DNA of 64,000 nt from Candidatus Komeilibacteria bacterium RIFOXYD1_FULL_37_29 (GCA_001818495.1 MHKS01000005.1:402584-466583), one strand, 5' to 3'; positions 6,484 to 25,862 are shown, counted from the first letter of the stretch. Translations and numbers: made by a program. Notes: generated by a model from the sequence alone, not told the origin.

Positions 6484-7519
6484 AATATTTATTATCATTC
6501 TTTCCTATAACGGCCGGCAGTATTTTGATGAATTGTTTCCCAATTTGTTGGGAGAAAAATATCAGGATTTGGATGTGCAAATTTTGGTGATAGACAATAA
6601 TTCTACTGATGGATCAGCGGACTATATTAATAGAAATTATCCGGAGGCCAAGGTAATCAGGCAAAAAGAAAATATTGGTTTTGCTGGAGCCAATAATCTT
6701 GGCTATCAGTACGCCAAGGAAAATCAGGCGGATTATATCTATCTACTCAATCAGGATACGGTAGTCACCAGCGGTTTTTTGCGTCCCCTTTATGATTTTG
6801 CCAAGAAAAATAAATTTGGCTCTTTACAATCCAAGCTTCTTTTATGGCCCGATAAAAATAAAATAAATACTATCGGTAATGCTATACATTTTTTGGGTTT
6901 TGGCTATGGACAAGGGGCTAGTCAGATAGATAATCAGCCGCTAGAAATCGTCAAGATAAATTATGCTTCCGGAGCCGGAGTCTTTATATCAATGCACGCT
7001 TTAGATGATTTGGGTTATCTTTTTGACGAAACTATGTTTATGTATTTGGAAGATTTAGATTTGGGTTGGTCCTTAAATATGCTCGGTTATGACAATTATT
7101 TGATACCCAATAGCGTGGTTTACCACAAATATGAATTCAAGCGCAGTATGAAATTATTTTATTGGTTTGAAAGAAATCGTCTGTGGGTGATGCTAAAAAA
7201 TTATAAAATTGGCAGCCTGCTATTGATTTTTCCAGCTTGGCTGATTATGGAGCTTGGCCAATTGGGCTTTACTGTAACTAACGGTAGATTTTGGTCAAAA
7301 ATTAAAGCTTATGGTTTTTTATTTTCTCCTGAACAAATGAAAATACTAATGAAAAAAAGAAAATATATCCAATCTAAACGTCAGCGGAATGACCGGCAAG
7401 TAGTCGGTAAATTTACTGGGATGATTTTATTTCAGCCATTGGATTTGCGGTTGTTAAAAGTAGCCAATGTATTTTTCTTTATTTATTGGCGCTTAGTTAA
7501 ATTATTTATTTTTTGGTAA
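6467..7519 (+). CDS. GT2 glycosyltransferase (rhamnosyltransferase-like)
   Basis: IIILSYNGRQYF, VIDNNSTDGS, DxD-type YLED motif. Confidence 0.65.
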   Translation: MLKKSKIFIIILSYNGRQYFDELFPNLLGEKYQDLDVQILVIDNNSTDGSADYINRNYPEAKVIRQKENIGFAGANNLGYQYAKENQADYIYLLNQDTVVTSGFLRPLYDFAKKNKFGSLQSKLLLWPDKNKINTIGNAIHFLGFGYGQGASQIDNQPLEIVKINYASGAGVFISMHALDDLGYLFDETMFMYLEDLDLGWSLNMLGYDNYLIPNSVVYHKYEFKRSMKLFYWFERNRLWVMLKNYKIGSLLLIFPAWLIMELGQLGFTVTNGRFWSKIKAYGFLFSPEQMKILMKKRKYIQSKRQRNDRQVVGKFTGMILFQPLDLRLLKVANVFFFIYWRLVKLFIFW

Positions 7520-7546
7520 TATTTTGGTCAGTAGCATAATCAATTT

Positions 7547-9930: not shown

Positions 9931-11524
9931 AATACTGATTATTTCATTTTTGGTTTTTTTATTTATCTATAATTTTACCAATATTTTTGTTTGGTGGCCG
10001 ATGCTTAAAGATACCGAACATTTGATTTTTAATTGGCCGGATAGCACTGCCAATTACTTTTTTTCCAGCTTATTTGCCAATGGTGGAAACCTTTGGTTTA
10101 GTGAGATGCTCAATCTTTACACCGATAATCTTTTACATGCCCGCAGCATCAATGTAGTGGGAGGAAATTTAGTACCCATGACATTTTTGCCGGCTATCGT
10201 TATTTTTGGAGCTTTTGGGCGTATTTTAGGGGAATTTGGTATATTAGCTCTGACACCATTTTTAGCTGCTTTATCCGGACTCTTGGTTTATAGATTGGTT
10301 TATTATATTTTCAAAGATTTAGATATTGCTTTGGCATCTTCTTTACTTTTCTGGTCTTTGGCCCCTTGGGTATTTTTTGCCAATGAAGTGATGCTACCGA
10401 GCATACTATTTATTTTTTTGGTTTTAGCCGGCTTTTGGGCGTTAGCTAAAAGTATAATTTTAGAAAAGAGTTTGTATTGGATACTAGCTTCGTTATTTTT
10501 ATCTTTGGCTATCTTTGTTCGGCCGACTGAGGTAGTCTGGTTGTCTTTGATTTTTATTTTTATAGTCTATCTCAATCGCCAGAAAATATATCTGAAGCAT
10601 TATGTTTACGGGTTCGTAATTTTTTTGGCTGTCTTGTTTTTATTTTTAATTTTAAATAAAAATACTTACGGTTCTTACTTTAGTATCGGTTACTTAAATT
10701 TTCAATCAAATAGTTTATCCACGGAGTTTTCCGGACAAAAAACTAGTGGATTGTTAAATTATCTAAAATTATTGATAGCTCCATTTGGTCTAGATTTTAT
10801 TTTACTTACCAAGAATTTTTATAAATATTTTATAGAAATTTTTGCACCGTATTTGGTATTGGCTTTTTTAGGAGTGAGTATTATATTTTATAAAAAACAA
10901 GTTACCAGTCCTTGGAAAAAATATTTTTTGCTTAGTCCTTTTGTTTTTATAATTATTTTGCTTTATTATGGATCTTGGGATTTGGCTGATCCACTGGTTA
11001 AAGAATTAAATAAAATATCTATTTCTTATGTCAGATATTTTTTGCCGCTATATATTTGGGTTTTACCGCTCGCCGCCTGGGCAATTAAAAAAATGTTTTA
11101 TGGGCCAACCAAAATAAATAAGGTAGCTTATTATATAGTGATTGTGGCACTGATGCTCACATCGGTTAAGTTGGCTTTTTATTCTAAAAATGATGGACTC
11201 TGGAGTAATATGGATAATTTACAAAATTATAATGAGCAGTATAAGGCCGTTAGCCAAGTAGTGGAAAAGGAGGCGGTGATTATTAGTGAGAGAAGTGACA
11301 AAGTTTTCTTCCCAAAATATCGGGTGATTGTTCCACAGGGTGATTTGCCGCTCTGGTCTAGAGTAAAAAATATTATTAATTTAGTACCGATTTATTATTA
11401 TACTGATAAAAATAGCGAGCTTTTGAGTGTTGACCAAGGTGAGCTGGATAAGCTAAACTTAAAACTAGAAGATCAGGGCAAAATATGGCATAATTTTAGC
11501 TTATATAAAGTATCCAATAAGTAA
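9902..11524 (+). CDS. Large polytopic membrane protein, probable GT-C-type glycosyltransferase/oligosaccharyl-polymerase (ArnT/PMT-like)
   Basis: 540 aa with at least 10 predicted TM helices, embedded in a glycosyltransferase operon. Confidence 0.4.
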   Translation: MMNIRLTHNKILIISFLVFLFIYNFTNIFVWWPMLKDTEHLIFNWPDSTANYFFSSLFANGGNLWFSEMLNLYTDNLLHARSINVVGGNLVPMTFLPAIVIFGAFGRILGEFGILALTPFLAALSGLLVYRLVYYIFKDLDIALASSLLFWSLAPWVFFANEVMLPSILFIFLVLAGFWALAKSIILEKSLYWILASLFLSLAIFVRPTEVVWLSLIFIFIVYLNRQKIYLKHYVYGFVIFLAVLFLFLILNKNTYGSYFSIGYLNFQSNSLSTEFSGQKTSGLLNYLKLLIAPFGLDFILLTKNFYKYFIEIFAPYLVLAFLGVSIIFYKKQVTSPWKKYFLLSPFVFIIILLYYGSWDLADPLVKELNKISISYVRYFLPLYIWVLPLAAWAIKKMFYGPTKINKVAYYIVIVALMLTSVKLAFYSKNDGLWSNMDNLQNYNEQYKAVSQVVEKEAVIISERSDKVFFPKYRVIVPQGDLPLWSRVKNIINLVPIYYYTDKNSELLSVDQGELDKLNLKLEDQGKIWHNFSLYKVSNK

Positions 11525-11935: not shown

Positions 11936-12949
11936 ATGAAATTATTAGTTACAGGCGGAGCCGGTTTTATTGGCTCAAATTTTATCCATTATATATTAAA
12001 AAAATATCCGGATTATCAAGTGGTAAATTTGGACATTTTGACTTATGCCGGTAATTTGGAAAATCTTAAAGCAGTGGAGCTAAATCCCCAATATACTTTT
12101 GTTAAAGGTGACATCGGTGATTATGATTTAGTGGATAAAATTGTCAAAGATCATAAGGTAGATATGATTGTTAATTTTGCCGCTGAGTCACATAACAGCT
12201 GGGCTATTATTGATCCGGGAAAATTTTTTAAAACCAATGTTTTAGGCACACAGAATTTACTGGAGGTAGCGAGAAAAAATGGTGGTATTAGGTTTCATCA
12301 TATTTCTACTTGTGAGGTCTATGGTGATTTGCCTCTGGACAGTGATAAAAAATTTACGGAAAATTCTCCTTATTTACCGCGCACACCGTACAATGCTTCC
12401 AAAGCCGCTTCTGATTTGGCGGTGAGGGTTTATTTTGATACTTTTAAATTGCCAGTGACAATTTCCAATTGTTCCAATAATTATGGACCATATCAATTTC
12501 CGGAAAAATTAATACCGCTCTTTGTCACTAATTTACTTAAAAATAAAAAAGTACCGGTTTATAAAAATAGTCAAAATCGTCGGGAGTGGTTGCATGTTTT
12601 AGACCATTGTCAGGCCGTTGATTTGATTCTTCATCAAGGTAAAATTGGCGAAACCTATAATGTCGGTAGCGGAGTGGAACAAAGTGTTGAACAAATTACC
12701 GATTTTATACTAAAAGAATTGGGCCAGCCACAATCCATGAAAGAATATGTCCAGGATAGACCGGGCCATGATCGTCGTTATCTTTTGGATGCTTCTAAAA
12801 TTAAAAAAGAGCTGGGTTGGCAACCAAAAATTGCTTTTGAGCAGGGGCTCAAAGACACTATCAAGTGGTATATCGATAATCCTCGTTGGTGGCAGCCGCT
12901 TAAGGAAAAGAATATTTTAGTGGAGGGAGATTGGAGTAAGAAAAAATAA
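11936..12949 (+). CDS. rfbB: dTDP-glucose 4,6-dehydratase
   Basis: LLVTGGAGFIGSNFIHYIL, YNASKAASD (YxxxK), 337 aa; this is the typical RmlB pattern. Confidence 0.8.
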   Translation: MKLLVTGGAGFIGSNFIHYILKKYPDYQVVNLDILTYAGNLENLKAVELNPQYTFVKGDIGDYDLVDKIVKDHKVDMIVNFAAESHNSWAIIDPGKFFKTNVLGTQNLLEVARKNGGIRFHHISTCEVYGDLPLDSDKKFTENSPYLPRTPYNASKAASDLAVRVYFDTFKLPVTISNCSNNYGPYQFPEKLIPLFVTNLLKNKKVPVYKNSQNRREWLHVLDHCQAVDLILHQGKIGETYNVGSGVEQSVEQITDFILKELGQPQSMKEYVQDRPGHDRRYLLDASKIKKELGWQPKIAFEQGLKDTIKWYIDNPRWWQPLKEKNILVEGDWSKKK

Positions 12950-12976: not shown

Positions 12977-13987
12977 TTGATTATGGAGCAGCAAATATTT
13001 AAAAAAGAATATACTCGTGATAATGCTTTGATTATCCAAGAGGTTTGGGGTAGAGCACATATGATAGATGTTGATGCTAATTCTAATCCTTACTTACCAA
13101 CGCAAGTAATTTATATTAACGATGGAGTAGCGGAAATTTGGAATAATGAGCGCTCCATCGAGTGGCTGGAAAGAAAATTACTGGAAAAAAATCAAACTGC
13201 TCCAGATTTTTTTTGGCAAAAAATGGAGGAATATGATAGACAGCTGGTTAATTTAAAAAAATATTGGCGAAAGCATCATTTAGATTCAGTGGCCGAACTA
13301 AGAGATTTTATTGGCTTGATGCGAGCCGCTACCAGAAATTTTTTAGTTTTTTATTATTCAGCTATCAGTCAAAAAACACCAGACAAGATAAAATCTCGGG
13401 CTTTAGAAATTCGGGAGCAAGATACTTTTTACGATGATTCCAATCGGCTGATCTTTAATACTTTAGAATACGTATATCCGGAAATAAAAGGTTTGGGCAT
13501 CACTGTATTAGAAAGAGATTTGAATCAATTTCCTAGTCCCCAGGAACTAAAAGAAAGATTTCAAAATTTTGTCTATATTACGGATGAAACGGCTGAGGCT
13601 ATAAATCTTAAAAAATTTTTAAGTAAGAACAAGCAATACAAATTTATTTTTAATCAAATAGAGGACCAGACTCAGGTTTTTGGTCAAGTAGCGCATCGGG
13701 GCAAAGTAAACGGGCGAGTGAGGATTTTAAAAAGAAAAAATCAAGTAGTTGAGTTTAAACCAGGTGAAATATTAGTTTCTCCTATGACTACTCCTGATTT
13801 TGTGCCAGCTATGAAGTTGGCGGCTGCTTTTGTCACTGACGAAGGAGGAATTGGTTGTCATGCCGCTATTTTAGCTAGAGAATTAAAAGTTCCTTGTGTG
13901 ATTGGTACTAGATTCGCTACCCAAGTTTTTAAAGACGGAGATATGGTGGAGGTGGATGCTGAGAAGGGCATCGTTAAAAAGATATAA
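12977..13987 (+). CDS. Paralog P1: novel N-terminal domain fused to a PEP-utilizing enzyme mobile (phospho-His swivel) domain
   Basis: C-terminal G.V.GRVRIL...PGEILVSPMTTPDFVPAMKLAAAFVTDEGGIGCHAAILARELKVPCVIGT, the PF00391-type phosphohistidine domain; the N-terminal roughly 230 aa have no recognisable family. Confidence 0.7.
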   Translation: MIMEQQIFKKEYTRDNALIIQEVWGRAHMIDVDANSNPYLPTQVIYINDGVAEIWNNERSIEWLERKLLEKNQTAPDFFWQKMEEYDRQLVNLKKYWRKHHLDSVAELRDFIGLMRAATRNFLVFYYSAISQKTPDKIKSRALEIREQDTFYDDSNRLIFNTLEYVYPEIKGLGITVLERDLNQFPSPQELKERFQNFVYITDETAEAINLKKFLSKNKQYKFIFNQIEDQTQVFGQVAHRGKVNGRVRILKRKNQVVEFKPGEILVSPMTTPDFVPAMKLAAAFVTDEGGIGCHAAILARELKVPCVIGTRFATQVFKDGDMVEVDAEKGIVKKI

Positions 13988-13991
13988 AACC

Positions 13992-15065
13992 ATGATTGAA
14001 GAAATAAAAAAATATAAATTAACAGCTTATGGTGGAGTAAAACGTAACCTTTCTTTATTTACTTATAGTTGCATAGGGCGGGCCTATGTGCACAGTATGA
14101 TAAAATTTGCCAAGGTAAGTTATGGTCCTATAGCTGCTTACGGTAATAAAGATTATTGGTATTCTTTGTTCAATATGAAATATTTGACTGATACGGTGGC
14201 TCAAAGCATGGAACGGGATAGTAGATGGTTGGACAAAGTAAGGAAAAAATCAATAGATAATTTTAATAAGTTTAAGATAAATTTTAATAGACAAATAAAA
14301 TTTGTTGAATCAAAGCCAATGGATTTTTTGGCTTGGATCATAAAAAATTATCCTGGTTATTTTGTCATTTTAGGATTGTATAATGGACTGTGGCGTTATA
14401 AGGAATATAGTAAGGATAGTCAGCCCGCCATAGATGATGGTAGTGTTGAAGAAATAGCCAAAGAAAGAAGTCAAGTAGCAATACTTTATCCTTTGGTGGA
14501 GAAGTACTTAAAAGAGGCTATTAAATCAATGTCTTTAAATATTGGTTTGGCAGAAATAGACTATCTATTATTGACCAGAGGAGAATTGCAACGTGTAGTG
14601 GAAAAAAAACTTATAAATAAAGAATTGCAAAGCTTAATAAAGAAAAGGGGCCAGGGGTATGTGTATTTATATAATGGTAATAGAGAAACGATTGTCTCTG
14701 ACCAAGAAATTTTAAAAAAAGTTAGAGACTACGCTATCCCTAAAATAAAAAATGTAAGTATTTTGCAAGGCACAGTAGCTTATAGTGGTTTTGTTGATGG
14801 TACAGTAGTTTTTGATTTAAAAAAGATGCTAGATTATCGAAAGGCAGTTTATATTACAAACATGACTCATCCAGATGAAATACCGTGGCTTAAAAAAGTT
14901 TCAGCTATAGTAACAGATGAGGGGGGAGTATTGTCTCACGTGGCGATTATTGCAAGAGAACTTAAAATTCCTACACTTATGGGCACAAAAATTGCTACCC
15001 AAGTTTTTAAAGACGGTGATATGGTAGAGGTTGACGCTATTAAAGGAATAGTAAAGAAAATATAA
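13992..15065 (+). CDS. Paralog P2: divergent N-terminal domain plus PEP-utilizing mobile domain
   Basis: TDEGGVLSHVAIIARELKIPTLMGT. The track ORF starts at 13902 and would overlap P1; the in-frame ATG at 13992, just after the P1 stop, is the more likely start. Confidence 0.65.
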   Translation: MIEEIKKYKLTAYGGVKRNLSLFTYSCIGRAYVHSMIKFAKVSYGPIAAYGNKDYWYSLFNMKYLTDTVAQSMERDSRWLDKVRKKSIDNFNKFKINFNRQIKFVESKPMDFLAWIIKNYPGYFVILGLYNGLWRYKEYSKDSQPAIDDGSVEEIAKERSQVAILYPLVEKYLKEAIKSMSLNIGLAEIDYLLLTRGELQRVVEKKLINKELQSLIKKRGQGYVYLYNGNRETIVSDQEILKKVRDYAIPKIKNVSILQGTVAYSGFVDGTVVFDLKKMLDYRKAVYITNMTHPDEIPWLKKVSAIVTDEGGVLSHVAIIARELKIPTLMGTKIATQVFKDGDMVEVDAIKGIVKKI

Positions 15066-15075
15066 ATAAAATAAT

Positions 15076-16128
15076 ATGGCGGATACATTAGATAGTTTAA
15101 AAAAATACCACTGGAAGTCAATTTGGGCTGGGGATTGGACAATAATGCCGTGCTCTGATTGGGGTGAACATTATATTACCACGTTGAGGGTCAATGGGGA
15201 GCCATTTGTTAGGCGAGTAGTATTTATATTTGAAAATGGAAAAAGCTCATGCTGGGTGACAGAAGAGGATATTTCGGTATTTCATGACAGAATGATAAAG
15301 ATGGTGGATGATAAAATGTCCAATGTTAACATCTTGGCTAATAATCTGGTACAAGCGGCCAAAGCAGCTTTAGAATACATGGATGAGAATAAAAATTTTA
15401 TAGATTACGAAACGTATAATAGGTATCGGGAGATCATACGTACTTATTATAATGCTCATATGCCGGTAAAGTATTTTGCTGATGCTTTGACTGGTCAGCA
15501 ACTGGAAGAGTTTTTACCAATTTTACAAAAAGCCAGAGTAGAGGCTGAGTCAGTATTCACAAATACTATTTTATTTGACAAGATGATTGTCAAAAATATT
15601 GGGGAAAAAACTGGGATAGCAGAAGGGCTATTATTAAATACCACTAGAGATGAGTTATTGCATATATGGAGGAATAAAGCGCCTTTGCCAAAAGACATAA
15701 AACAACGGCATTCATTTTCAGCTTTAGTATTTGAAAATAAAGATCCAAAATTATTTGTTGGTAATAAAGCTAAAGAAATATTAGCTACTTTAGCCAGAGT
15801 AGACACTAAAGAAAATATTGTAGGTAGCACAGCTTATCCGGGTAAGATTGTGGGTAGAGTAAAAATTGTTTTAGACCCAACTAATGTTAGAGATTTTCGT
15901 CAGGGCGATGTTTTAGTTACACGTATGACTAGACCAGAATTTTTACCTTTAATGAAAATGGCTTCTGGTTTTGTGACCGATGCCGGTGGTATTTTAAGTC
16001 ATGCCGCTATCACAGCCAGAGAATTAAAAAAACCATGTATAATTGGAACTAAAGTAGCTACCCAAGTTTTTAAAGACGGTGATATGGTAGAGGTTGACGC
16101 TATTAAAGGAATAGTAAAGAAAATATAA
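15076..16128 (+). CDS. Paralog P3: divergent N-terminal domain plus PEP-utilizing mobile domain
   Basis: [25 protein letters not shown]; the last 73 nt are identical to the P2 3' end. Confidence 0.7.
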
Positions 16129-16129
16129 A

Positions 16130-17149
16130 ATGGATATAGATTTTGACTACAGTTTAGAATATGAAAGACATCAAAGGGACTATTCTATTTTAGGGACCAC
16201 TATTGTTTTTCGAGGATTATTTAAACAAAATGCTAGATTTTTTGGTGTTATCCCTAATCCTGTTTATTTTTTGGTTAAGGACGATATTTTATATCATTAT
16301 ATGGCGAAAAAAGATGGCGTCAGCCGAATGGAAAATTGGCTTAAGAAAAATGATCTGAATTCATTTAAAAAAATAGAAAAGTTTTATTCTGCTCGCTTGA
16401 AAGAATTTAATAAATTTATATTAAAACAGCCAGAAAATTTAGAACTGGCTATTAAGCAAGCCGAGGAGTTTTTTGTTGATTTTACGGAAATAATCCTTTT
16501 GGGGTATGAATTACCTCTTTATATGAAAGATAAAGCATCTTCAGAGATTATAGATTTTGCTTTAGCTAGTAGGGAAAAATATGAAAATGTCCATAAGATA
16601 AACTTTTCCATTATAGAAAAACTATTGAATCAGCTGGAAAAAAACAGAGACATACCCAAGGACACTTTAAAATATTTAACCATTGAGGAATTGGAAGATT
16701 TTTTACGGAACAATAAATTAGCAGATATTGGATATAGAAAAAAGTATATTGTAGTTAAATATGATGGTAATTATTCCTTTTTTTATGATCCTAATCTTTG
16801 GAATATTTTAAATCCTAAAGTAGCTAGAGATTTTGTCAAAGGAAATACTGCTTATAAAGGGATAGTCAGGGGGACTGTTAAGATTATTAAAAAAATTACA
16901 GAAGCAGCCGAGTTAAAAAAGGGACAAATTTTAATAACTAGTATGACTGATCCGCGCTATGTACCAGCTATGAAAAAAGCCGCAGCGATTGTCACTGACG
17001 AGGGTGGTATAACTTGTCATGCTGCTATAGTGTCTCGGGAATTAAAAATACCTTGTGTAATAGGGACAAAAGAAGCTACTCAAGTATTTAAAGACGGAGA
17101 TATGGTGGAAGTTGATGCTAATCAGGGAATAGTGAGAAAAATAAAGTAA
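16130..17149 (+). CDS. Paralog P4: divergent N-terminal domain plus PEP-utilizing mobile domain
   Basis: [25 protein letters not shown]. Confidence 0.7.
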
Positions 17150-17299
17150 ATATAAATATCTTATCCCGCTTCGCCCAGAGGCTTCGCGGGATGCTCAATT
17201 TTGCAACTAATCGCTACGCTCTTAGGCAAAATTGGCAGTAGACAATTACTAGATTATTAGGTAGAATTTTAGTATAATTTTAAATTAGTCATTAAATAA

Positions 17300-18133
17300 A
17301 TGAAGATTTTAATCATTGGAAAAGGGTATTTAGGCACTCGTTGCGCTGTGGCCTGGAAAAATGCCGTAATTAGCGACAAGATAATAGCCACAGTTAAAGA
17401 CGTGGAAGAACTGATAGACCAGCATCATCCGGACGGTATTTTAAATGCGGCTGGTGTAGTCGGCAAACCAAATGTAGATTGGTGTGAAACTCATCAAATA
17501 GAAACCCTTAAGGGTAATACTATTTTGCCGTTGATTATAGCCGAAGCTTGTCAAAATAAGGGTATTTATCTTTTGCATATGGCTACGGGTTGTGTTTTTT
17601 ATGGACAGTCTCCTCACGGTGGTCCTTGGACAGAAGAGGACTATGGTAATCCAGCAGCCGTTTATACTAAGTCAAAATTTGCGGCTGATTTAGTTTTGTC
17701 TACTTTACCCAATGTTGGTATTGCTCGTATTCGGATGCCGTTTGATAGCCAGTCACATCCCGCCAATCTCATTGATAAGCTATCTAAATATGAAAAGATA
17801 GTTGATGTAGAAAATTCCATGACTGTGGTTGATGATATGGTTGATGTTTTTTATAAACTTTTAGAAAAGAAAGCCGAAGGCATATTTCACGTGACCAACC
17901 CTGGATCAATCAAACACAAAGAAATAATGGAGCTGTATAAAAAATATGTTGATCCCAGTCATAGCAATAAGTGGATTACTGAAGAAGATTTGGTAAAGCT
18001 TGGTCTGGCTAATAAAAAAAGATCAAATAATATCATGACCTCTATAAATCTTAAAAAATACGGCATTACAATGCGGCCGATTAAAGAAGCCGTTACAGAG
18101 GCTCTTAAAAAATATGCTAAAGGTAAAAAATAA
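17300..18133 (+). CDS. dTDP-4-dehydrorhamnose reductase-like (RmlD family, extended SDR)
   Basis: N-terminal MKILIIGKGYLG Rossmann motif, NAAG, YTKSK (YxxxK); 277 aa; sits immediately upstream of rmlA. Confidence 0.5.
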   Translation: MKILIIGKGYLGTRCAVAWKNAVISDKIIATVKDVEELIDQHHPDGILNAAGVVGKPNVDWCETHQIETLKGNTILPLIIAEACQNKGIYLLHMATGCVFYGQSPHGGPWTEEDYGNPAAVYTKSKFAADLVLSTLPNVGIARIRMPFDSQSHPANLIDKLSKYEKIVDVENSMTVVDDMVDVFYKLLEKKAEGIFHVTNPGSIKHKEIMELYKKYVDPSHSNKWITEEDLVKLGLANKKRSNNIMTSINLKKYGITMRPIKEAVTEALKKYAKGKK

Positions 18134-18135
18134 TT

Positions 18136-18864
18136 ATGAGAGGAATAATTTTAGCCGGTGGAGCCGGTAATAGGTTAAAACCATTAACAAAAGTAACTTC
18201 TAAACAGTTGTTACCGATTTATGATCAGCCGATGATCTATTATCCACTTCAGACCTTAATCAATGGTGGCATCCAAGATATCTTAGTTATTTCCGATCCC
18301 AATAATATCGGCAATATTGTTAGACTACTGGGCAGTGGTAAAGATTTTGGTGTCAGAATTCGTTATGAAGTCCAAGATAGTCCCGATGGATTAGCTCAAG
18401 CGTTTTTACTGGGGGAGATTTTTATTGGTGATGACGATGTCACTTTGATATTGGGTGATAATTTATTTGTCGGTGACGGTAAATTTTTAGAAGAAGCTAT
18501 CAGAAGTTTTAAAGGTGGCGGTCGGGTTTTTGCTAAGGAAGTGCCAGATCCAGAAAGATATGGTGTGGTAGATTTTGACAAAAAAGGTCAAGCCATTAGT
18601 ATTGAAGAAAAACCAAAAAATCCCAAGAGTAATTATGCGGTCACGGGTTTATATATTTATGATAATGGGGTGATTGCTAAAGCTAAAAGTCTAAAACCTT
18701 CTGCTCGTGGAGAGCTGGAGATTACTGATGTTAATAATCTTTACCTTAAAGAAGGTCGCTTAGATGTCAGAATTTATAAAGACTATTGGTTGGATACCGG
18801 TACTTTTGACGCCTTACTTGAAGCCGGTAATACTATTGCTAAACTGAGAAAAGCCGGCAAATAA
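18136..18864 (+). CDS. rmlA: Glucose-1-phosphate thymidylyltransferase (short form)
   Basis: MRGIILAGGAGNRLKPLTKVTSKQLLPIYDQPMIYYPL, a near-canonical RmlA N-terminus. Confidence 0.8.
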   Translation: MRGIILAGGAGNRLKPLTKVTSKQLLPIYDQPMIYYPLQTLINGGIQDILVISDPNNIGNIVRLLGSGKDFGVRIRYEVQDSPDGLAQAFLLGEIFIGDDDVTLILGDNLFVGDGKFLEEAIRSFKGGGRVFAKEVPDPERYGVVDFDKKGQAISIEEKPKNPKSNYAVTGLYIYDNGVIAKAKSLKPSARGELEITDVNNLYLKEGRLDVRIYKDYWLDTGTFDALLEAGNTIAKLRKAGK

Positions 18865-18866
18865 GT

Positions 18867-19709
18867 ATGAATTTTGAAAGTCTTAATGTAGAAAAAGAAG
18901 CTAAGGGTGAAAATGTAACTGTTCATTCTGTTTTTATTCGTCATGGAGAAAAATTTCACGATATAAATAATCCAGAGACAGATCTGACCCCTAAGGGAGA
19001 AGAGGCTAGCCGTGAAATTGGAAAAAATAGGCCGGAAGTTGATGCTATTAAAGGGTATAGTAGTGATACTCAGAGAACAAAATATACTACCAGGTCCATA
19101 GTTGAGCAGTCTCCTACAGAAAACAAGTTAACTCAACGCATCAGAAATGGCTTGGGTATTAGGTATGATTCAGGTAATGAATTTACCAAGAAATTGCAAG
19201 GGATAAAAGAAGAGTTGCTGGGAAAAGGGTATGATGATTTATCAGAGGAGCAAAAAGTAGCCAGGTTAGATGAATACAACTCTGTTATAACTGATTGTTA
19301 TTTAGCTTTGGGCGATAAGCGGCCGGACCCAAATACCTATTCTCCAGTAGAAACAGCCGCTACTATGGCCAAGATATTGAATAATAATATCAGGATGGCC
19401 GATAGATTAAAAGCTAATTCAAAAGTTGATTTGGTCAATGCCACACATGATTTTAATATAGTGGCTTTCTTGAAGGAAGTTTTGGTAAGAAACATAGATG
19501 ATAAAAGAGTAGTTGGTTTTGATTCTGTTAAGGAAATAGGGGGGAGCATGGAATTTAATGGTGGTTTTGAAGTTTTAATAAAAACAGATGATGGTGGCCA
19601 TAAAACTCTAAAAATATTATTTAGGGGAGAAGAATACGAAATAGACGAGACTAGATTAACCGAGCTAGTAGAAATTGCCAAAGGTTTAAAAAAGCAGGAT
19701 AAAAAATAA
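18867..19709 (+). CDS. Histidine phosphatase superfamily protein (SixA/PGAM branch)
   Basis: FIRHGEK (RHG catalytic motif), DLTPKGEEASREIG, SSDTQRTKYTTRSI (the S..QRA..T motif). Confidence 0.6.
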   Translation: MNFESLNVEKEAKGENVTVHSVFIRHGEKFHDINNPETDLTPKGEEASREIGKNRPEVDAIKGYSSDTQRTKYTTRSIVEQSPTENKLTQRIRNGLGIRYDSGNEFTKKLQGIKEELLGKGYDDLSEEQKVARLDEYNSVITDCYLALGDKRPDPNTYSPVETAATMAKILNNNIRMADRLKANSKVDLVNATHDFNIVAFLKEVLVRNIDDKRVVGFDSVKEIGGSMEFNGGFEVLIKTDDGGHKTLKILFRGEEYEIDETRLTELVEIAKGLKKQDKK

Positions 19710-19724
19710 TATAGTAATTTATAT

Positions 19725-20015
19725 ATGTCGAAATTAAATATAAAACCATCAGCCGAAGGTAAGGTTAATAAAAAAATTGACCAAGAATCTAAATTAGATA
19801 AATTAAATAAGATCTTAGACCATATTAGACCAGCCTTAGAAAGAGATGGCGGTAATTTAGCTCTAATCAGTTATGATGCTAAAAAGGGGATAGTGGAAGT
19901 CAGCTTTCAAGGTGCTTGTGCTCATTGTTCCTTGGCCAATGTCACTTTAAAGCATTTGATTGAGGCAGAAATTAGAGATCAGATGCCAGAAGTCAAAGAA
20001 GTAAGAGCAGTTTAA
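19725..20015 (+). CDS. NifU-like (Nfu C-terminal domain) Fe-S cluster scaffold/carrier protein
   Basis: GGNLALISYD..GIVEVSFQGACAHCSLANVTLKHLIEAEI; the CxxC Nfu signature. Confidence 0.7.
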   Translation: MSKLNIKPSAEGKVNKKIDQESKLDKLNKILDHIRPALERDGGNLALISYDAKKGIVEVSFQGACAHCSLANVTLKHLIEAEIRDQMPEVKEVRAV

Positions 20016-20040
20016 TTTTCAAAATTTTAGACAAAAGGAA

Positions 20041-20078
20041 AAGCGGCGACATATTGTGTGTGTCGCCGCTTTGTTTTT
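20041..20078. terminator. Bidirectional rho-independent terminator between the convergent nifU-like gene (+) and the GC-rich phosphatase-like gene (-)
   Basis: 11-bp stem aagcggcgaca/tgtcgccgctt, loop tattgtgtg; T-runs on both strands. Confidence 0.6.
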
Positions 20079-20092
20079 AGTCCGTTGGGGGA

Positions 20093-20671
20093 CTACTCTT
20101 CGATCCAGACGGCTTTGATCGAGCCGTCGTCGTATAGGTTGAAGCGAATCGCTTCCATGGAGTTGAGGCTGCGGGCCTCGGTCATGCCGATGGACTTTGC
20201 CAACATCGGAATGGTGGGATCGTGGAAGATCCCGACACCGATCTGGCCGTCGTTCATCAGGTCGAACATCTTTCGTAGAGCACTCTGAGCGTCGCTCTTA
20301 AACTGATCGAAAACTGACGGATCCATGTGTTTGAGCACAGCCTCCATATTAGAGAGGCCGTCTTTGATGTCGGCGCGCATGGCGTCAGTGATAGTCTTCT
20401 GGAAGAATTCGGCGGAGCCGAGGCCGTCAACGGCATCGTGGATTTCCATCTCCTGGAAGGGGTCGGACATCATCCGCATGGCGGCGAGAGTCTCACTGGT
20501 GCGGATCAGCGGTCCGTGGAAACCGTGGGAGATCTTGGTGTCGGATGTGTTGTACAGTCTGTCACCGGTGTTGTAGGCCAATTCGGCCCCGGCATGAGAA
20601 ATGTGGTTTCCGCTTTTATCCTTATCGGAGTGGCGGAACAAGTCCAGAGTTTTTACAACAAACTTGGCCAT
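20093..20671 (-). CDS. Histidine-phosphatase-superfamily-like protein encoded in a GC-rich islet
   Basis: LFRHSDKD (an RHG-like RHS variant), HGPLIRTSETLAAM, C-terminal IFHDPT. Local GC is far above the flanks, and several overlapping stop-free frames on both strands are typical of high-GC DNA. Confidence 0.5.
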   Translation of the reverse strand: MAKFVVKTLDLFRHSDKDKSGNHISHAGAELAYNTGDRLYNTSDTKISHGFHGPLIRTSETLAAMRMMSDPFQEMEIHDAVDGLGSAEFFQKTITDAMRADIKDGLSNMEAVLKHMDPSVFDQFKSDAQSALRKMFDLMNDGQIGVGIFHDPTIPMLAKSIGMTEARSLNSMEAIRFNLYDDGSIKAVWIEE

Positions 20672-20722
20672 TTGTGGGCCTCCTTTGTAAAATTATGAGT
20701 GTACACACCATAAATATAGGTG

Positions 20723-20743
20723 ATCCTTGAGTTATTCAAGGAT
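20723..20743. promoter_or_regulatory. Perfect inverted repeat ATCCTTGA-N5-TCAAGGAT in the divergent promoter region
   Basis: Seen directly. It lies about 50 nt upstream of the (-) phosphatase-like gene start and about 130 nt upstream of the wHTH-containing P5 gene; candidate operator. Confidence 0.35.
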
Positions 20744-20820
20744 ATATTAGTATAGCACATTATCCTATTTTAGTCAATATTAGTTATTAGTCTATAATAT
20801 AGTTAAAAATACTATAAATA

Positions 20821-20849
20821 TTGACATTTTTACTATATAATGCTAGACT
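20821..20849 (+). promoter_or_regulatory. Candidate sigma70-type promoter of P5 (TTGACA-N17-TAGACT)
   Basis: Consensus -35 TTGACA at 20821..20826; 17-nt spacer; weak -10 TAGACT. Confidence 0.3.
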
Positions 20850-20872
20850 GCCTTATTAAATCATAAAATAAT

Positions 20873-22681
20873 ATGTTGGAAAAAATTATCAATTCTAAAA
20901 CTCGTTTGGCTATATTGGCTATGTTTTTTCAAGGCAAAGAAACAGAATTATCGGCTAGTCAGATAGTCAAAAAAAGCAAACTTGATCCAGCCAATGTCCA
21001 TAAGGAAATTAGTAATCTATTGGCTGGTAAATTTATTTTGCAAAAAGAGGCCATGGGGCGTAAATATTTTTGTGTGAATACAGGTACTGTATTTTATGAT
21101 GGTTTGGTAAAGATATTTAAAAATTATAAAATTAATCAATTTGGTGAAGAATGGTTTTCGCTAGAATCAGTACCAAATTATTATCCAATGATGGTGGCTT
21201 TTGCTTGGAATGTAAAGCGAGCTAATGATTTTTTAAAAAGTCGTGGTTTTAAAAATAAGTTTACCAAATTGTTGACTACTTATGACAACAATATTAATGA
21301 TTTGTTAATCATTAAAAAAGAATTTGATGCTTTATCCCAAGAAACTTTGGAAAAAGTTAGTTTTGATCCCAGTTGGGGACAGCAATATATTGATGATTTA
21401 TCAGCCGAGGTTGATAATTTAATTAAAGCTACTAATGATTTAGAGAAAGTAAATTTAGGAAAATTATCCAATAAAGAATTGTATGATTTATATCAGGAGT
21501 ATTATGCTGTCTATGGCCAACTTCATATTTTTCACTGGATTCAAACCGTAGCGGATTTTGGTGATAATCTTTTTTCCAAATATTTAATGAATTATTTGCG
21601 TCAGAAGATCAAAGACAGCCAATATTCTTTGGGGGAAGTATTTTCTACTTTGACGACTCCTACTAAAGATGGTGAAACGACTAAAGAATATAAAAATTTA
21701 TTAAATATTTTAGAGGACATAATTTCGGATCAAGATTTAAAAAAATATTTTAAAGATACAGAAACTCGTATTATTGTTCGCGATTTAAAAAATGTCAATA
21801 AGGTTATGGATGAAAAAATTTTAAATCACGTTACGAGGTATGGTTATCTTGGCTATGGTACAGTCGGACCTAACTGGGGTAAAGATTATTTTATTGATAT
21901 TTTAGGCTCTTTAGTCAGACAAAATACCAAGCCAGCTGAGTTGCTTGATAATTTGCAGAAAGATAAGTTAAATATTGAAGTCAAGCAACAAAAATTTATT
22001 AAACAACTGGAGATAGAGGAGAAATATCAGCAATTATTTGAAGTAGCCAGAGGTTTAGTTTTCACCAAGGGTAGCCGTAAAGAGTCCATGTTTCATAGCT
22101 ATAGTATTATAGACCATTTATTTAGAGAAATCGGTCGTCGTTATTATTTATCGGTTAATCAAGTCAGATATTTCTATCCTCATGAATTTGAAGATTTATT
22201 GCTTCATAATAAATTTAGTGCCGCTAAATTAAATGAGCGTTATAAATTTAGTTTGCAGTATTCCCTAGGTGATTATAGTCAGGATAAATTATTAGAAGAT
22301 GAGGAAGCTAGAAAATTTTTAGAAAATTTTAATATTGTCAAAGAGGAAATTGCTGATATTAAAGTAATGGAAGGAGACTGTGCTTCTCCTGGTCGGGCTC
22401 GTGGTAGCGCCAAAATTATCAATATACCCAAAGATATGAGTAAAATGGAGCAAGGTGATGTTCTGGTATCTATTGCTACTAACCCCGATTTAGTGCCAGC
22501 TATTAAGAAAGCTAGTGCTATTGTCACCGATGTCGGGGGCATTACCTGTCATGCCGCTATAGTGTCTCGAGAATTGGGTATTCCTTGTGTTATTGGTACC
22601 AAAATAGCCACTAAAGTCTTAAAAGACGGTGATGTGGTAGATGTGGACGCTACCCATGGTAAAGTTACGATTGTCCGGTAG
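20873..22681 (+). CDS. Paralog P5: N-terminal winged-helix (MarR/ArsR-like) DNA-binding domain, long central region, C-terminal PEP-utilizing mobile domain
   Basis: N-terminus TRLAILAMFFQGKETELSASQIVKKSKLDPANVHKEISNLLAGKFI (wHTH pattern); C-terminus GDCASPGRARGSAKII...[49 protein letters not shown]. Confidence 0.65.
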   Translation: MLEKIINSKTRLAILAMFFQGKETELSASQIVKKSKLDPANVHKEISNLLAGKFILQKEAMGRKYFCVNTGTVFYDGLVKIFKNYKINQFGEEWFSLESVPNYYPMMVAFAWNVKRANDFLKSRGFKNKFTKLLTTYDNNINDLLIIKKEFDALSQETLEKVSFDPSWGQQYIDDLSAEVDNLIKATNDLEKVNLGKLSNKELYDLYQEYYAVYGQLHIFHWIQTVADFGDNLFSKYLMNYLRQKIKDSQYSLGEVFSTLTTPTKDGETTKEYKNLLNILEDIISDQDLKKYFKDTETRIIVRDLKNVNKVMDEKILNHVTRYGYLGYGTVGPNWGKDYFIDILGSLVRQNTKPAELLDNLQKDKLNIEVKQQKFIKQLEIEEKYQQLFEVARGLVFTKGSRKESMFHSYSIIDHLFREIGRRYYLSVNQVRYFYPHEFEDLLLHNKFSAAKLNERYKFSLQYSLGDYSQDKLLEDEEARKFLENFNIVKEEIADIKVMEGDCASPGRARGSAKIINIPKDMSKMEQGDVLVSIATNPDLVPAIKKASAIVTDVGGITCHAAIVSRELGIPCVIGTKIATKVLKDGDVVDVDATHGKVTIVR

Positions 22682-22747
22682 ACAAGCAGTCTATTGGACT
22701 TTTTGTTTTAGGCATACTAAAATTAAGATAAATATTACTTAATTACT

Positions 22748-23686
22748 ATGGAATTAATTAGAGATTTTAAAAAATTGGACAAACACGCTGTTGCTTTGGC
22801 TGGCGGAAAAGGGGCCTCTCTGGGCGAGATGACCAAAGCCGGTATTCCGGTGCCACCGGGATTTGTAGTGTTATCAGCTGCTTTTGAAAAATTTTTAGAG
22901 GAAACTGATCTAAATGTTGAAATTGATGCTGTTATAAAAACAGTCAAACACGAAGATATAAATCTAGTAGAGCAGGCCTCGGTTAAAATCAGGGATTTAA
23001 TCAGTGACGCCCAGATGCCGGACGATATAGCCAAAGAAATAAAAGCAGAGTTTAAAAAAATGGATGCTAAATATGTAGCGGTGCGTTCTTCAGCCACTGC
23101 TGAGGACTCTTCAGTAGCTTCTTGGGCCGGAGAATTAGAATCATATCTTAATACCACTGAAAAAGATTTATTAGATAAAGTCAAAAAATGTTGGTCTTCA
23201 CTTTTTACACCGCGGGCTATTTTTTATCGTTTTGAAAAAAAACTTCAAGATGCCAAAGTTTCTGTAGCCGTAGTAGTGCAGAAAATGGTGCAATCAGAAG
23301 TATCGGGGATTACTTTTACAGTTCATCCGGTCACCGAAGACAGAGACCAGATGGTGATTGAGGCAGGTTGGGGACTAGGAGAGGCTATTGTTTCCGGCAT
23401 GGTGACACCTGATGCTTATGTGATTGATAAAAAAGATTTCTCTATTATGGATATAAATATTGCTGATCAAGCTAAAAAAATTATAAAAACTCCCAAGGGT
23501 AATCAATTTGTAGAAGTAGAGCATAATAAAAGAGAAGAACAAAAATTGGGCGGTGTTCAGATTATAGAGCTGGCCAAAATTTGTGCTGGCATTGAAAAAC
23601 ATTATGGCTTTCCCTGTGATATTGAGTGGGCTTATGAAAAGGGTGATTTTTATATAGTCCAGTCTCGGCCGATTACTACTTTATAA
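22748..23686 (+). CDS. Stand-alone PEP synthase/pyruvate phosphate dikinase N-terminal ATP-binding (ATP-grasp) domain protein
   Basis: VALAGGKGASLGEMTKAGIPVPPGFVV and VAVRSSATAEDSSVASWAGELESYLN, the hallmark PPDK_N (PF01326) motifs. 312 aa with no His or TIM-barrel domain. Confidence 0.75.
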   Translation: MELIRDFKKLDKHAVALAGGKGASLGEMTKAGIPVPPGFVVLSAAFEKFLEETDLNVEIDAVIKTVKHEDINLVEQASVKIRDLISDAQMPDDIAKEIKAEFKKMDAKYVAVRSSATAEDSSVASWAGELESYLNTTEKDLLDKVKKCWSSLFTPRAIFYRFEKKLQDAKVSVAVVVQKMVQSEVSGITFTVHPVTEDRDQMVIEAGWGLGEAIVSGMVTPDAYVIDKKDFSIMDINIADQAKKIIKTPKGNQFVEVEHNKREEQKLGGVQIIELAKICAGIEKHYGFPCDIEWAYEKGDFYIVQSRPITTL

Positions 23687-23704
23687 ATTTTATACAAAAG
23701 AAAA

Positions 23705-23735
23705 AAGCCCTGTGTTTAGACAGGACTTTTTTTAT
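23705..23735. terminator. Bidirectional terminator between convergent genes
   Basis: aaaaaagccctgtgtttagacaggacttttttt; hairpin flanked by A-run and T-run. Confidence 0.55.
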
Positions 23736-23754
23736 TCGCGGTGTTGGCGAATTT

Positions 23755-24246
23755 TTAGGCTTCAGTTTCGCCAAGTTGTTCGAGAATCGAACAACCGAGT
23801 TCATCGTTGTCATCGATGGTAATCTCTACGACCGAGCCACTTTTGGCAACTTCGATACCCAGAGATTTGGCGAAAGGTCGGCCGGTGCAGAGCACGGCCT
23901 GATCAGGCAGAGAGCGGAGAAAGTTGTGGATGGCCGGAGCCATGTCCTGGATGCCGGTGTATTGCTCGTACCAGCAGGCGGTGCCGTCGGCAAATATGAT
24001 GGTCGGATTGCCGTCGATGGTATCCATCGATGTGGCGTCTCCTAAGAGGAGAGTAGAGCGGGTCATTTCCAGACCTAATGTGGCGGCAACGTGCCGATGT
24101 CGGCGACCAGTACCACATATGATGGCAGAAGGGTTGTCAGGGAGTAAGTCCTTTAGAGACTCAATTTGATTTACTCCGGAAGGAGTCATAGTTGGGTCAG
24201 CACCTTCGTGCTTGTCGCCGTGTAAAACCGCATAAATCGTCTTCAT
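23755..24246 (-). CDS. SixA-like phosphohistidine phosphatase-family protein in a GC-rich islet, with the catalytic Arg replaced (LHG instead of RHG)
   Basis: IYAVLHGDKHEG...MTPSGVNQIESL...GTGRRHRHVAATL aligns to the SixA N-terminal pattern (RHG...LT..G..Q...S...RA..TA). High local GC with overlapping stop-free frames. Confidence 0.45.
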   Translation of the reverse strand: MKTIYAVLHGDKHEGADPTMTPSGVNQIESLKDLLPDNPSAIICGTGRRHRHVAATLGLEMTRSTLLLGDATSMDTIDGNPTIIFADGTACWYEQYTGIQDMAPAIHNFLRSLPDQAVLCTGRPFAKSLGIEVAKSGSVVEITIDDNDELGCSILEQLGETEA

Positions 24247-24450: not shown

Positions 24451-24810
24451 ATGTCTATTATCCGCACCAGCCGAGTATTATATCAAGATAAATTGGCCTT
24501 TTGGTTGATTAATTTTTCAATTTTATCCATAGTATCCACCTGGGCGCTTTTTTTATTTAAAAGAGTAGAGCGTGATCCATTGGCCGTACTGCACTATAAT
24601 ATCTACGCTGGCATAGACGCTTTGGGGTCGTGGCAATGGCTTTATCTATTACCAGCCATTTTTTTGTTGATAGCGGCTTTAGATTTTTGGTTGGCTGTTT
24701 TATTGTGGACTAAGGCTAGAGTACTGAGCTATTTTTTATTAGCCACCATTTTGATTATGAATTTTTTTATGTCTTTATTTATCTATAATATATTAAATTA
24801 TAATTCCTAA
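24451..24810 (+). CDS. Hypothetical small membrane protein
   Basis: 119 aa with three hydrophobic segments; immediately upstream of mraY. Confidence 0.35.
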   Translation: MSIIRTSRVLYQDKLAFWLINFSILSIVSTWALFLFKRVERDPLAVLHYNIYAGIDALGSWQWLYLLPAIFLLIAALDFWLAVLLWTKARVLSYFLLATILIMNFFMSLFIYNILNYNS

Positions 24811-25862
24811 TGCCAGCCTTTGAAATAATTAAAGTTTTGACCTTAGCCACCATTGGTTTTTCTTTGTCCATGCTTTTAACGCCAGCTTGGACCCATTTTC
24901 TTTATAAGTACAAATTGGTCAAAAATGTCAGAAATGATAATAGTACGCCAATTTTTTCCAAACTACACAAAGAAAAATCTGGTACGCCGACGATGGGTGG
25001 AGTTTTGATTTGGATGACCGTTTTAATATTGGCGGTAGTTTTTTGGTTGATTCATATTATTTGGCCAGACAGTCTTTTGGCTGACTTTGATTTTTTGACT
25101 AGAGAAGAAACTTATTTGCCACTCGGTGCTTTGGTAGCTTCAGCCATAGTTGGTTTGGTGGATGACTGGTTCAATATCAACCGCCAAGGTGGCGGTAAAG
25201 GTGGCGGTTTGACTGTGAAGCATCGTTTGTTTATTTATACACTGATTGCTTTATTTGGTGCTGGTTGGTTTTATTTTAAATTGGATTGGGATGTTATTCG
25301 TATACCGTTTTTGGGAGTTTTTCAATTGGGCTGGTGGTTTATTCCATTTTTTGTTTTTGTCTTGGTAGCCACTGCTTTTTCCGTTAATGAAGCCGATGGT
25401 TTAGATGGTTTGGCTGGTGGTATAGTCTTGGCGGCTTTTGCATCTTATGGCACCATTGCTTTTATTCAAGGCAATTATAATATGGCGGCTTTTTGTGGAG
25501 TGATAGCTGGAGCACTACTATCATTTTTGTGGTTCAATATCAACCCGGCTCGTTTTTTTATGGGAGATACCGGAGCCATGTCTTTGGGTATTTCTTTGGG
25601 TATAGTGGCGATGTTGACCGGCTATCCTTTTCTTTTGCCGATTATTGGATTTTTATTAATGTTGGAATCTTTGTCAGTGATTATTCAGATTCTTTCTAAA
25701 AAGATTCGTCACAAAAAAGTATTTTTATCAGCGCCGATTCATCATCATTTTGAAGCCAAGGGCTGGCCGGAGACCAAAATAGTTATGCGTTTTTGGGTGA
25801 TTGCCGGAGTTTTTGCCGTTTTAGGATTGATTATGGCTATTATTGATTTGTCTTTATGGTAA
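24810..25862 (+). CDS. mraY: Phospho-N-acetylmuramoyl-pentapeptide transferase
   Basis: GTPTMGGVLIW, NEADGLDGLAGG, polytopic membrane protein, 350 aa. Confidence 0.85.
   Translation: MPAFEIIKVLTLATIGFSLSMLLTPAWTHFLYKYKLVKNVRNDNSTPIFSKLHKEKSGTPTMGGVLIWMTVLILAVVFWLIHIIWPDSLLADFDFLTREETYLPLGALVASAIVGLVDDWFNINRQGGGKGGGLTVKHRLFIYTLIALFGAGWFYFKLDWDVIRIPFLGVFQLGWWFIPFFVFVLVATAFSVNEADGLDGLAGGIVLAAFASYGTIAFIQGNYNMAAFCGVIAGALLSFLWFNINPARFFMGDTGAMSLGISLGIVAMLTGYPFLLPIIGFLLMLESLSVIIQILSKKIRHKKVFLSAPIHHHFEAKGWPETKIVMRFWVIAGVFAVLGLIMAIIDLSLW

Follow-up and report, generated by a model that had tools for sequence, protein, structure and literature searches.

Two-subunit dikinases have been characterised as PpsAB (phenylphosphate synthase), PasAB (phenylphosphoamidate synthase), CreHI and HpeHI (PMC7500099, PMC12167813). 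In these pairs, the ATP-grasp domain is on one subunit, and an acceptor domain like that of rifampin phosphotransferase (RPH) is on the other together with the C-terminal catalytic His; both subunits are needed for activity, PpsAB is a dikinase, and the acceptor subunits of the PpsA/HpeH type share about 45% identity (PMC12167813, PMC7500099). In RPH, the ATP-site residues Lys22, Arg117, Thr136 and Glu297 are important by experiment, and Ala at either Arg666 or Glu667 abolishes rifampin phosphorylation (PMC4844700). Precedents for charging in trans and for the His mechanism are therefore given by HpeHI, CreHI and PpsAB (PMC12167813, PMC7500099) and by RPH (PMC4844700). Here we analysed a 64-kb stretch of DNA from Candidatus Komeilibacteria bacterium RIFOXYD1_FULL_37_29 (64,000 nucleotides, hereafter the window), a groundwater bacterium whose genome is tiny. 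Between rmlB and mraY lie five genes (P1 to P5) that end in a phospho-His swivel domain, one gene (G) for a separate ATP-grasp protein, and three genes (H1 to H3) assigned to the histidine-phosphatase superfamily (Table 1). We propose, with a probability of roughly 0.6, that G and P1 to P5 form a multi-subunit dikinase of the RPH/HpeHI type, in which several His modules, each specific for its substrate, would be charged in trans by one ATP-grasp protein.

The original prediction, made from the sequence of the window, had described five genes ending in a phosphoenolpyruvate (PEP)-utilizing domain with its His, a single ATP-binding PPDK_N domain on a separate 312-aa protein, and no PEP/pyruvate TIM barrel. 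Pfam searches bore out all three points. PF00391 (PEP-utilizers) matched the C-terminus of P1 to P5 (75-96 bits; cut-off 23), PF01326 matched G, and these six were the sole swivel and PPDK_N genes of the window; a PEP/pyruvate TIM-barrel domain was absent from every open reading frame (ORF) of the locus. The motif T-D-x-G-G-x-x-x-H-A-A-I-x-x-R-E, including the His, was invariant in an alignment of 60 sequences, and the T/SxxGGxxxH phospho-His motif of RPH-type dikinases was present in P1 to P5. G aligned to residues 7-316 of RPH-Lm (5fbs) and keeps Lys22, Arg117 and Glu297 of RPH (as K21, R113 and the E of 'DIEW'), with Ser in place of Thr136. The prediction had described established members as single polypeptides, which is contradicted by the split PpsAB, PasAB, CreHI and HpeHI (PMC7500099, PMC12167813). 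The present genes likewise depart from the single-polypeptide layout of the RPH family, G and P1 to P5 being separate ORFs, in the same gene order, in six independent assemblies. Their scores were below the equivalog cut-offs of PEP synthase and pyruvate phosphate dikinase (PPDK) (337-348 bits for G and 84-138 bits for the P proteins; cut-offs 598-740) and below those of the RPH models NF041857 and NF000283 (299 and 212 bits for G and 32-72 bits for the P proteins; cut-offs 999 and 1700).

The N-terminal regions of P1 to P5 had been described as unrelated to one another or to any recognised family. This claim was overturned; pairwise BLASTP, which gave only marginal matches (E ~0.01), is blind to the relationship, and profile methods were needed. 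Homologs taken from 89 fetched loci and from a search with P4 were assembled into family alignments, which were then compared profile to profile (hhalign). All five N-domains were linked: P1N with P3N (94% probability) and P4N (96%), both over ~190 columns, P2N with P4N (87% over 209 columns), and P3N with P4N (98%) and P5N (96.5%). The coverage of ~190-230 columns across pairs corresponds to essentially the entire domain. In single-linkage clustering, P1, P3 and P5 joined the central region of 34 fused ATP-grasp proteins, and the profile of the P5 family (A2) aligned with RPH (5hv2) residues 523-878 at an E of 3e-29. The RPH motif Y-R666-E667-Y-P-K670 fell on P5 K399-R402, which places K399 at the position of Arg666; this column is Arg in P1 to P4 (joint alignment, hhalign). 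In the P4 N-domain R16, R148 and E187 are invariant, R148 without exception across 46 P4 orthologs. P5 has an enlarged acceptor domain like the RPH rifampin-binding domain (RIF-BD; aa 89-494), with K399, R402, E419 and R423 conserved, behind a winged helix-turn-helix (wHTH)-like region (aa 1-88). The predicted fusion of P5 to a winged helix was seen only below threshold (HTH_20, 16.6 bits; HTH_5 in one homolog, 21 bits against a cut-off of 22). These profile comparisons indicate that the five N-domains have diverged from a single domain, itself a homolog of the rifampin-binding domain in RPH. Because of this homology, the P proteins would represent the acceptor-plus-swivel half of an RPH-type dikinase and G the other half. 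The conserved Arg where RPH has its catalytic one speaks more for enzymes than for pure carriers.

The same arrangement was then sought in other genomes. The survey covered 80 loci centred on G, each up to ~21 kb, on contigs from one genome per species; the taxa were many lineages of the candidate phyla radiation (CPR) and DPANN archaea (Nanoarchaeia, Woesearchaeota). G was stand-alone in 46 loci and fused to an acceptor-plus-swivel part in 34, the fused proteins being ~660 aa upwards with an RPH-like layout. Swivel-only genes, counted at a length of at least 250 aa, were absent from 27 loci; one was present in 16, two in 15, three in 8, four in 7, five in 6 and eight in a single locus, which gives 37 loci with 2-8 such genes. 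Up to five modules without an ATP-grasp domain lay behind fused-G genes, an order that implies service in trans. The P5-G order (S602-G312) was also found in five further loci (L011, L012, L013, L015, L035). The P4 type has thousands of homologs, and its full-length orthologs, including one from a Diapherotrites archaeon, are 37-68% identical. The prediction that one ATP-grasp protein charges several modules is thus supported as far as computation goes, in that stand-alone PPDK_N genes and arrays recur; the charging itself would follow by analogy with the known pairs.

G homologs were 67-87% identical in the protein database and 59-72% across the surveyed loci. Between CPR bacteria and three loci labelled Nanoarchaeia, Woesearchaeota or 'archaeon' (L054, L060, L070), G was 59-65% identical, which points to transfer between the domains or to extreme constraint; errors in binning could also account for it. 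The swivel domains of P1 to P5 are 44-65% mutually identical, while their N-domains are below BLAST detection. The last 69 coding nt of P2 (14994-15062, + strand) are 100% identical to P3 16057-16125; in 30-nt windows the last two matched at 30/30 and 30/30 and those upstream at 17-20/30 (~60-67% identity), and the tract also emerged as repeat families D3 and D4. This identity points to recent gene conversion between tandem paralogs. The 3' ends of P1 and P4 are likewise unusually alike (26-27 of 30). Swivel conservation, the P2/P3 tract and the conserved G would together agree with a need for all swivel domains to dock on the same partner.

The original prediction had also listed three SixA/PGAM-like phosphatases, a description that holds for H1 and H2 and for H3 in predicted fold only. 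H1 belongs to the histidine-phosphatase superfamily by Pfam (PF00300 His_Phos_1, 27.2 bits; cut-off 21.7), H2 through a homolog (P0246, 45% identity) that carries PF00300, and H3 by predicted fold; H2 and H3 themselves gave no match in single-sequence Pfam and PDB searches. The H1 family (alignment A5) keeps the complete catalytic set R25, H26, T74 and H194. The set is also complete in H2 (RHS, R57, H150), whose family (alignment A3) keeps RH[S/T], PLxRTxET and FHDP, seen in H2 itself as RHS, PLIRTSET and FHDP. H3 keeps the nucleophile His9 and Arg49, but its motif is LHG (THG in its family) where the arginine of RHG would stand, and a second catalytic His is missing. Its fold was assigned by structure prediction, since there was neither a Pfam or PDB match nor a significant match between the H2 and H3 families (hhalign, 2% probability), and H3 may be either an atypical enzyme or a binding protein. 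The H3 family comprises ~160-aa proteins (219 cluster representatives) with a predicted SixA-like fold and no Pfam model.

Phosphatase-like genes were found beside swivel genes in many of the loci. H1 homologs adjoin swivel genes in L010, L034, L056, L071 and the DPANN locus L008, and H2 homologs adjoin swivel or G genes in L011, L015 and L037. H3-family members on unrelated metagenomic contigs had an adjoining swivel or PPDK_N gene in four of four informative cases. Genes for low-molecular-weight protein tyrosine phosphatases (LMW-PTP, PF01451), a superfamily unrelated to H1-H3, lay 41-64 bp from swivel genes in seven loci and so take up the position that the other phosphatases have in the arrays. 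Altogether, 20 of 80 loci held a gene resembling H1, H2 or H3, a His_Phos_1 type of 207 aa or a gene for an LMW-PTP, and 23 of 26 phosphatase-like ORFs adjoined (<=300 bp) swivel or G genes, compared with 169 of 1059 other ORFs (odds ratio 40, Fisher p 2.5e-15). By this non-random adjacency the phosphatases belong to the P/G system. In one genome (L093, 2928-5754), saccharopine-dehydrogenase-like and Orn/DAP/Arg-decarboxylase-like genes separate a swivel gene from the genes for an H3-like protein and PPDK_N. These two, which look like carboxyspermidine dehydrogenase and decarboxylase, are an isolated, possible hint of a polyamine link.

Table 1. Coordinates of genes and sequence elements in the window and of phosphatase genes and other neighbours in further loci.
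Feature	Sequence	Coordinates	Strand	Description
rmlB	window	11936-12949		precedes P1
P1	window	12977-13987	+	RIF-BD-like acceptor domain ~aa 1-228 and C-terminal swivel, His295; PF00391 87.7 bits
P2	window	13992-15065	+	357 aa, swivel-only, His316; PF00391 75 bits
P3	window	15076-16128	+	350 aa, swivel-only, His309; PF00391 84.3 bits
P4	window	16130-17149	+	339 aa, swivel-only, His297; widespread CPR/DPANN orthologous family
RmlD-like short-chain dehydrogenase/reductase	window	17300-18133		81 bits; rmlD cut-off 224
rmlA	window	18136-18864		242 aa, C-terminally short; 329 bits, cut-off 361
H1	window	18867-19709	+	280 aa, histidine-phosphatase branch 1 with inserted region
NifU-domain protein	window	19725-20015		
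Terminator-like hairpin	window	20040-20072	+	after NifU gene
H2	window	20093-20671	-	192 aa, divergent histidine-phosphatase-family protein; divergently transcribed from P5
H2-P5 intergenic region	window	20672-20872		AT-rich; imperfect inverted repeats overlapping promoter-like sites
Inverted-repeat example	window	20794-20808 with 20827-20841		87% complementary
P5	window	20873-22681	+	602 aa, swivel His560; PF00391 84.3 bits; directly upstream of G
Terminator-like hairpin, strong	window	22673-22699	+	overlaps P5 stop codon, just before G
G	window	22748-23686	+	312 aa, stand-alone ATP-grasp PPDK_N; PF01326 340 bits
Terminator-like hairpin	window	23732-23701	-	after H3
H3	window	23755-24246	-	163 aa, SixA-sized, histidine-phosphatase fold predicted
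Promoter-like site	window	24329-24301	-	perfect TTGACA-17-TATAAT with TG extension, upstream of H3
mraY	window	24810-25862		follows H3
H3-family gene	L090	458-976		
H3-family gene	L092	1557-2093		
H3-family gene	L093	6001-6510		
H3-family gene	L096	790-1326		
LMW-PTP	L048	3313-3744		
LMW-PTP	L062	16943-17473		
LMW-PTP	L063	14617-15054		
LMW-PTP	L067	13604-14047		
LMW-PTP	L080	13193-13672		
LMW-PTP	L081	18253-18699		
LMW-PTP	L082	12401-12838		
TraG-like P-loop/PrgI-like genes	L011	13587-15488		within 10 kb of G
TraG-like P-loop/PrgI-like genes	L073	12536-12970		within 10 kb of G

In the dikinase that we favour, G would bind ATP, pass the beta-phosphate to the swivel His of a docked P protein and release AMP and inorganic phosphate (Pi). 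The phospho-His swivel would swing back onto its own RIF-BD-homologous N-domain, where the conserved Arg (Lys in P5) would help to hand the phosphate to the bound acceptor. Charging in trans by G is what we infer from RPH's ATP-grasp domain and from HpeI, which does likewise for HpeH. One G would serve all five P proteins, and each acceptor domain, being differently shaped, would presumably take a different acceptor, most likely a small molecule. The three histidine-phosphatase-fold proteins would be accessory and may act on the phosphorylated products by hydrolysis or bring the phospho-His carriers back to the uncharged state.

Several observations weigh against this dikinase. Some swivel arrays are far from any G (>10 kb, L007; an example is three tandem genes in a Nomurabacteria genome), and the terminator-like hairpin between P5 and G means that co-transcription of the pair is not assured. 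Glu667, the partner of the catalytic Arg in RPH, is retained in P1 and P4 only, and P5 has Lys at the Arg position. The Fisher p for phosphatase adjacency is optimistic, as the 80 loci are not phylogenetically independent. The linked phosphatases are moreover of kinds best known for acting on proteins (SixA-like, LMW-PTP), which fit a protein phospho-relay at least as well as the turnover of metabolites. For the CPR and DPANN members, the favoured model is built on sequence comparison.

A broader reading, which we put forward only tentatively, would join all parts into an ATP-driven phosphoryl-distribution system common to CPR bacteria and DPANN archaea and similar to the phosphotransferase system (PTS). 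In it, a single highly conserved ATP-grasp charger would load a variable set of 1-9 swivel-His modules. Each module would have an acceptor pocket of its own, and together the modules may be the chief kinases that trap host-derived metabolites with high affinity and irreversibly, in place of conventional kinases lacking in reduced genomes. The dedicated H3-type T-H-G SixA-like family and the other phosphatases would reset the carriers, and modules with a wHTH, P5 among them, would pass the charge state on to transcription.

The main rival to the dikinase is a regulatory phospho-His network resembling the PTS or VadK, which we regard as unlikely. In such a network, G would be an autokinase-like charger, the P proteins would be carriers or sensors controlling partner proteins or, via P5, transcription, and the SixA-like and LMW-PTP phosphatases would erase the phospho-His mark. 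The swivel folds like the His domain of Enzyme I in the PTS, genes of the H3 family show tight linkage to those for swivel proteins, and P5, which is transcribed divergently from H2, shares a wHTH-like N-terminus with its relatives; VadK, a PPDK-derived protein without a TIM barrel that is reported to act as a regulatory His kinase, is a precedent (PMC13400623). However, every P protein retains a complete acceptor domain of the RPH kind, in which a basic residue stands where RPH has the catalytic Arg; a pure carrier would need neither. HPr-like or receiver-like partner genes did not recur in the neighbourhoods, and the wHTH is sub-threshold and confined to one of the five modules.

Quite improbable, in our view, is a battery of RPH-like phosphotransferases that inactivate antibiotics or toxins and shield an episymbiont from secondary metabolites of its host or community. 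Clade A of RPH acts on rifamycins, and the wider family has been described as dikinases for small molecules whose specificity is unexplored (PMC4844700). In the present loci the acceptor domains are fast-diversifying and tandemly amplified, with copy numbers from 0 to 8, as is typical of defence and resistance genes. The P4 orthologs, on the other hand, are 37-68% identical over many phyla and DPANN, which looks like housekeeping and not like an arms race, and G is among the most conserved proteins of these loci. The NCBIfam RPH cut-off of 999 was reached neither by G (299 bits) nor by the P proteins (52-72 bits), archaea are not targeted by most antibacterials, and PADLOC gave no defence-system match in the locus other than the wHTH region of P5.

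A role in the cell envelope, with modules that phosphorylate rhamnose-containing glycans, lipid-linked precursors or sugars in the manner of the plant glucan, water dikinase, appears very improbable. It would agree with the setting of the locus, in which rmlB, the rmlD-like gene and rmlA flank P1-P4, with glycosyltransferases upstream and a dcw cluster (mraY-murD-ftsW-murG-murC-murB) downstream, and glucan water dikinases apply the same ATP-grasp and swivel chemistry to a polysaccharide (PMC13553574). The predicted dTDP-rhamnose operon stood for rmlB (460 bits; cut-off 365), whereas rmlA and the rmlD-like gene were under their equivalog cut-offs. An rmlC was absent between 11.9 and 24.2 kb, and the pathway at the locus may be non-canonical. 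The association is not conserved: homologs of rmlB, rmlA and the rmlD-like gene were found in only 2-6 of 89 loci, mostly the same-species assemblies L001-L006, and mraY homologs in 11 of 89, six of these being L001-L006. Neither an envelope gene family among the recurrent neighbours nor, by Pfam search, a carbohydrate-binding module was detected. Since rml and mraY homologs are rare across loci and no neighbour family other than the phosphatases recurs, the rml and dcw context is lineage-specific, and a general connection with rhamnose or the cell wall was rejected. The antibiotic and envelope-glycan readings are possible sub-cases of the favoured dikinase, with weaker support.

Finally, there is next to no chance that the genes are decayed fragments of PEP synthase or PPDK or assembly artefacts: PEP synthase models are the top NCBIfam names, but gene order is identical in six independent assemblies, intact orthologs of each module type occur in many genomes, scores are far under the PEP synthase cut-offs with no TIM barrel present, and the N-domains match the RPH acceptor domain and not PEP synthase, so that a broken ppsA, which the prediction had called unlikely, is excluded.

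A search for conserved neighbours in the 80 loci found, phosphatases aside, no recurrent family, the commonest being in at most 8 loci. The next most frequent were genes like those of type IV secretion systems, an S41 peptidase and an aminoacyl-tRNA synthetase, each in at most 8 of 80 loci and probably reflecting lineage synteny. TraG-like P-loop and PrgI-like genes lay within 10 kb of G in ~8 loci (two examples in Table 1), which is probably synteny within one lineage and not a functional link.

Within the window, the gene callers gave P1 334 aa, and its start is probably the ATG at 12983. The start of P2 is almost certainly the ATG at 13992; the ORF from the TTG at 13902 overlaps P1, and both public assemblies and gene callers give 357 aa, so this longer ORF is taken as an over-extension. 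From the hairpins and the promoter-like site (Table 1), P5, G and H3 may be separate transcription units and not a single operon. The inverted repeats between H2 and P5 could be a candidate operator to which P5 might bind through its wHTH-like N-terminus, or they could have arisen by chance because the DNA is AT-rich. Upstream (946-11524) is a glycan-biosynthesis cluster with an S8 peptidase that bears FG-GAP repeats, three GT2 and two GT4 glycosyltransferases, two NAD-dependent epimerase/dehydratases, DUF2304, and a 540-aa protein weakly matching the LA_3751/3752 putative glycosyltransferase family. Rfam detected no RNA family in the window.

CPR and DPANN genomes have at most about a thousand genes, and the metabolism of these organisms is for the greater part unexplained. 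Nine genes of this Komeilibacteria genome would be devoted to the system, and the 59-72% identity of G across phyla and across the divide between bacteria and archaea argues for an important shared function. The split enzyme as such is not new, being preceded by PpsAB, CreHI and HpeHI. What appears new is the multi-module arrays sharing one conserved ATP-grasp protein, their spread in CPR and DPANN, and the dedicated phosphatase-fold partners, including the H3 family, which has a predicted histidine-phosphatase fold and an atypical active site and is captured by no Pfam model. A description of swivel-domain arrays in CPR or DPANN was not found in the open-access literature, which is no proof that they are undescribed. 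If one ATP-grasp protein does serve many acceptor-specific modules, the RPH/PEP-synthase superfamily would gain a new principle of organisation, a modular kinase with interchangeable specificity subunits, and there would be a concrete, testable route to the compounds that these symbionts phosphorylate. The system is conserved and experimentally tractable, in organisms of largely unexplained physiology. In metabolic reconstructions of CPR and DPANN, the names "PEP synthase" and "phenylphosphate synthase" should be avoided for these genes.

Among known systems, PEP synthase and PPDK give the top sequence matches through their ATP-grasp and swivel domains, but their TIM barrel is missing from the P/G locus. 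VadK (Rv1127c) of M. tuberculosis, reported as an autophosphorylating regulatory kinase, also combines a PPDK-derived ATP-grasp domain and a swivel His without a TIM barrel (PMC13400623); unlike the P/G system, it is a single polypeptide in single copy, with no RPH-like acceptor domain and no arrays. In the PTS (Enzyme I, HPr and multiple EII), one charger feeds many specificity modules through phospho-His, as is proposed here; its Enzyme I His domain is homologous to the swivel domain, and SixA acts on NPr, just as a SixA-like protein is linked here. The PTS donor, however, is PEP via a TIM barrel, whereas the donor here would be ATP via the ATP-grasp domain. Homologs of HPr and EII were not seen, and every module brings an acceptor domain of the RPH kind with it. 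RPH (PDB 5FBS, 5HV1) has all three domain types homologous to parts of G and the P proteins. It consists of one chain of 867 aa and has one acceptor domain, while the proteins here are separate, Glu667 is partly conserved, scores are far below the RPH equivalog cut-offs, and nothing points to a rifamycin substrate.

The two-subunit dikinases HpeHI (Rhodococcus), CreHI (Corynebacterium), PpsAB (Thauera) and PasAB (Desulfatiglans) are close in layout. Their ATP-grasp protein of ~310-390 aa (HpeI/PpsB) is separate, as G is, and their other subunit, HpeH/PpsA, combines an acceptor domain like that of RPH with a swivel His at the C-terminus, as P1-P5 do. The reaction of PpsAB and HpeHI, ATP to AMP, Pi and X-P via phospho-His (PMC12167813, PMC7500099), would have a counterpart here, as predicted from the genes. 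The P proteins are not orthologs of PpsA or HpeH, since the PpsA-like NCBIfam models (PRK08296) match their swivel region only (40-100 bits; cut-offs 578-730), and the acceptor domains of P1-P4 are about half as large. The known pairs are 1:1, act on phenolic aromatics and have genes for UbiD-type carboxylases next to them; the P/G system has a ratio of 5:1 in this genome and up to 8:1 elsewhere, with no aromatic-catabolism genes near the P/G locus and no recurrent carboxylase neighbour in the 80 loci. The histidine-phosphatase-fold partners are an extra component compared with systems of the PpsAB/HpeHI type. The P5-G pair (P5 ending at 22681 and G starting at 22748) mirrors the pair of HpeH and HpeI genes.

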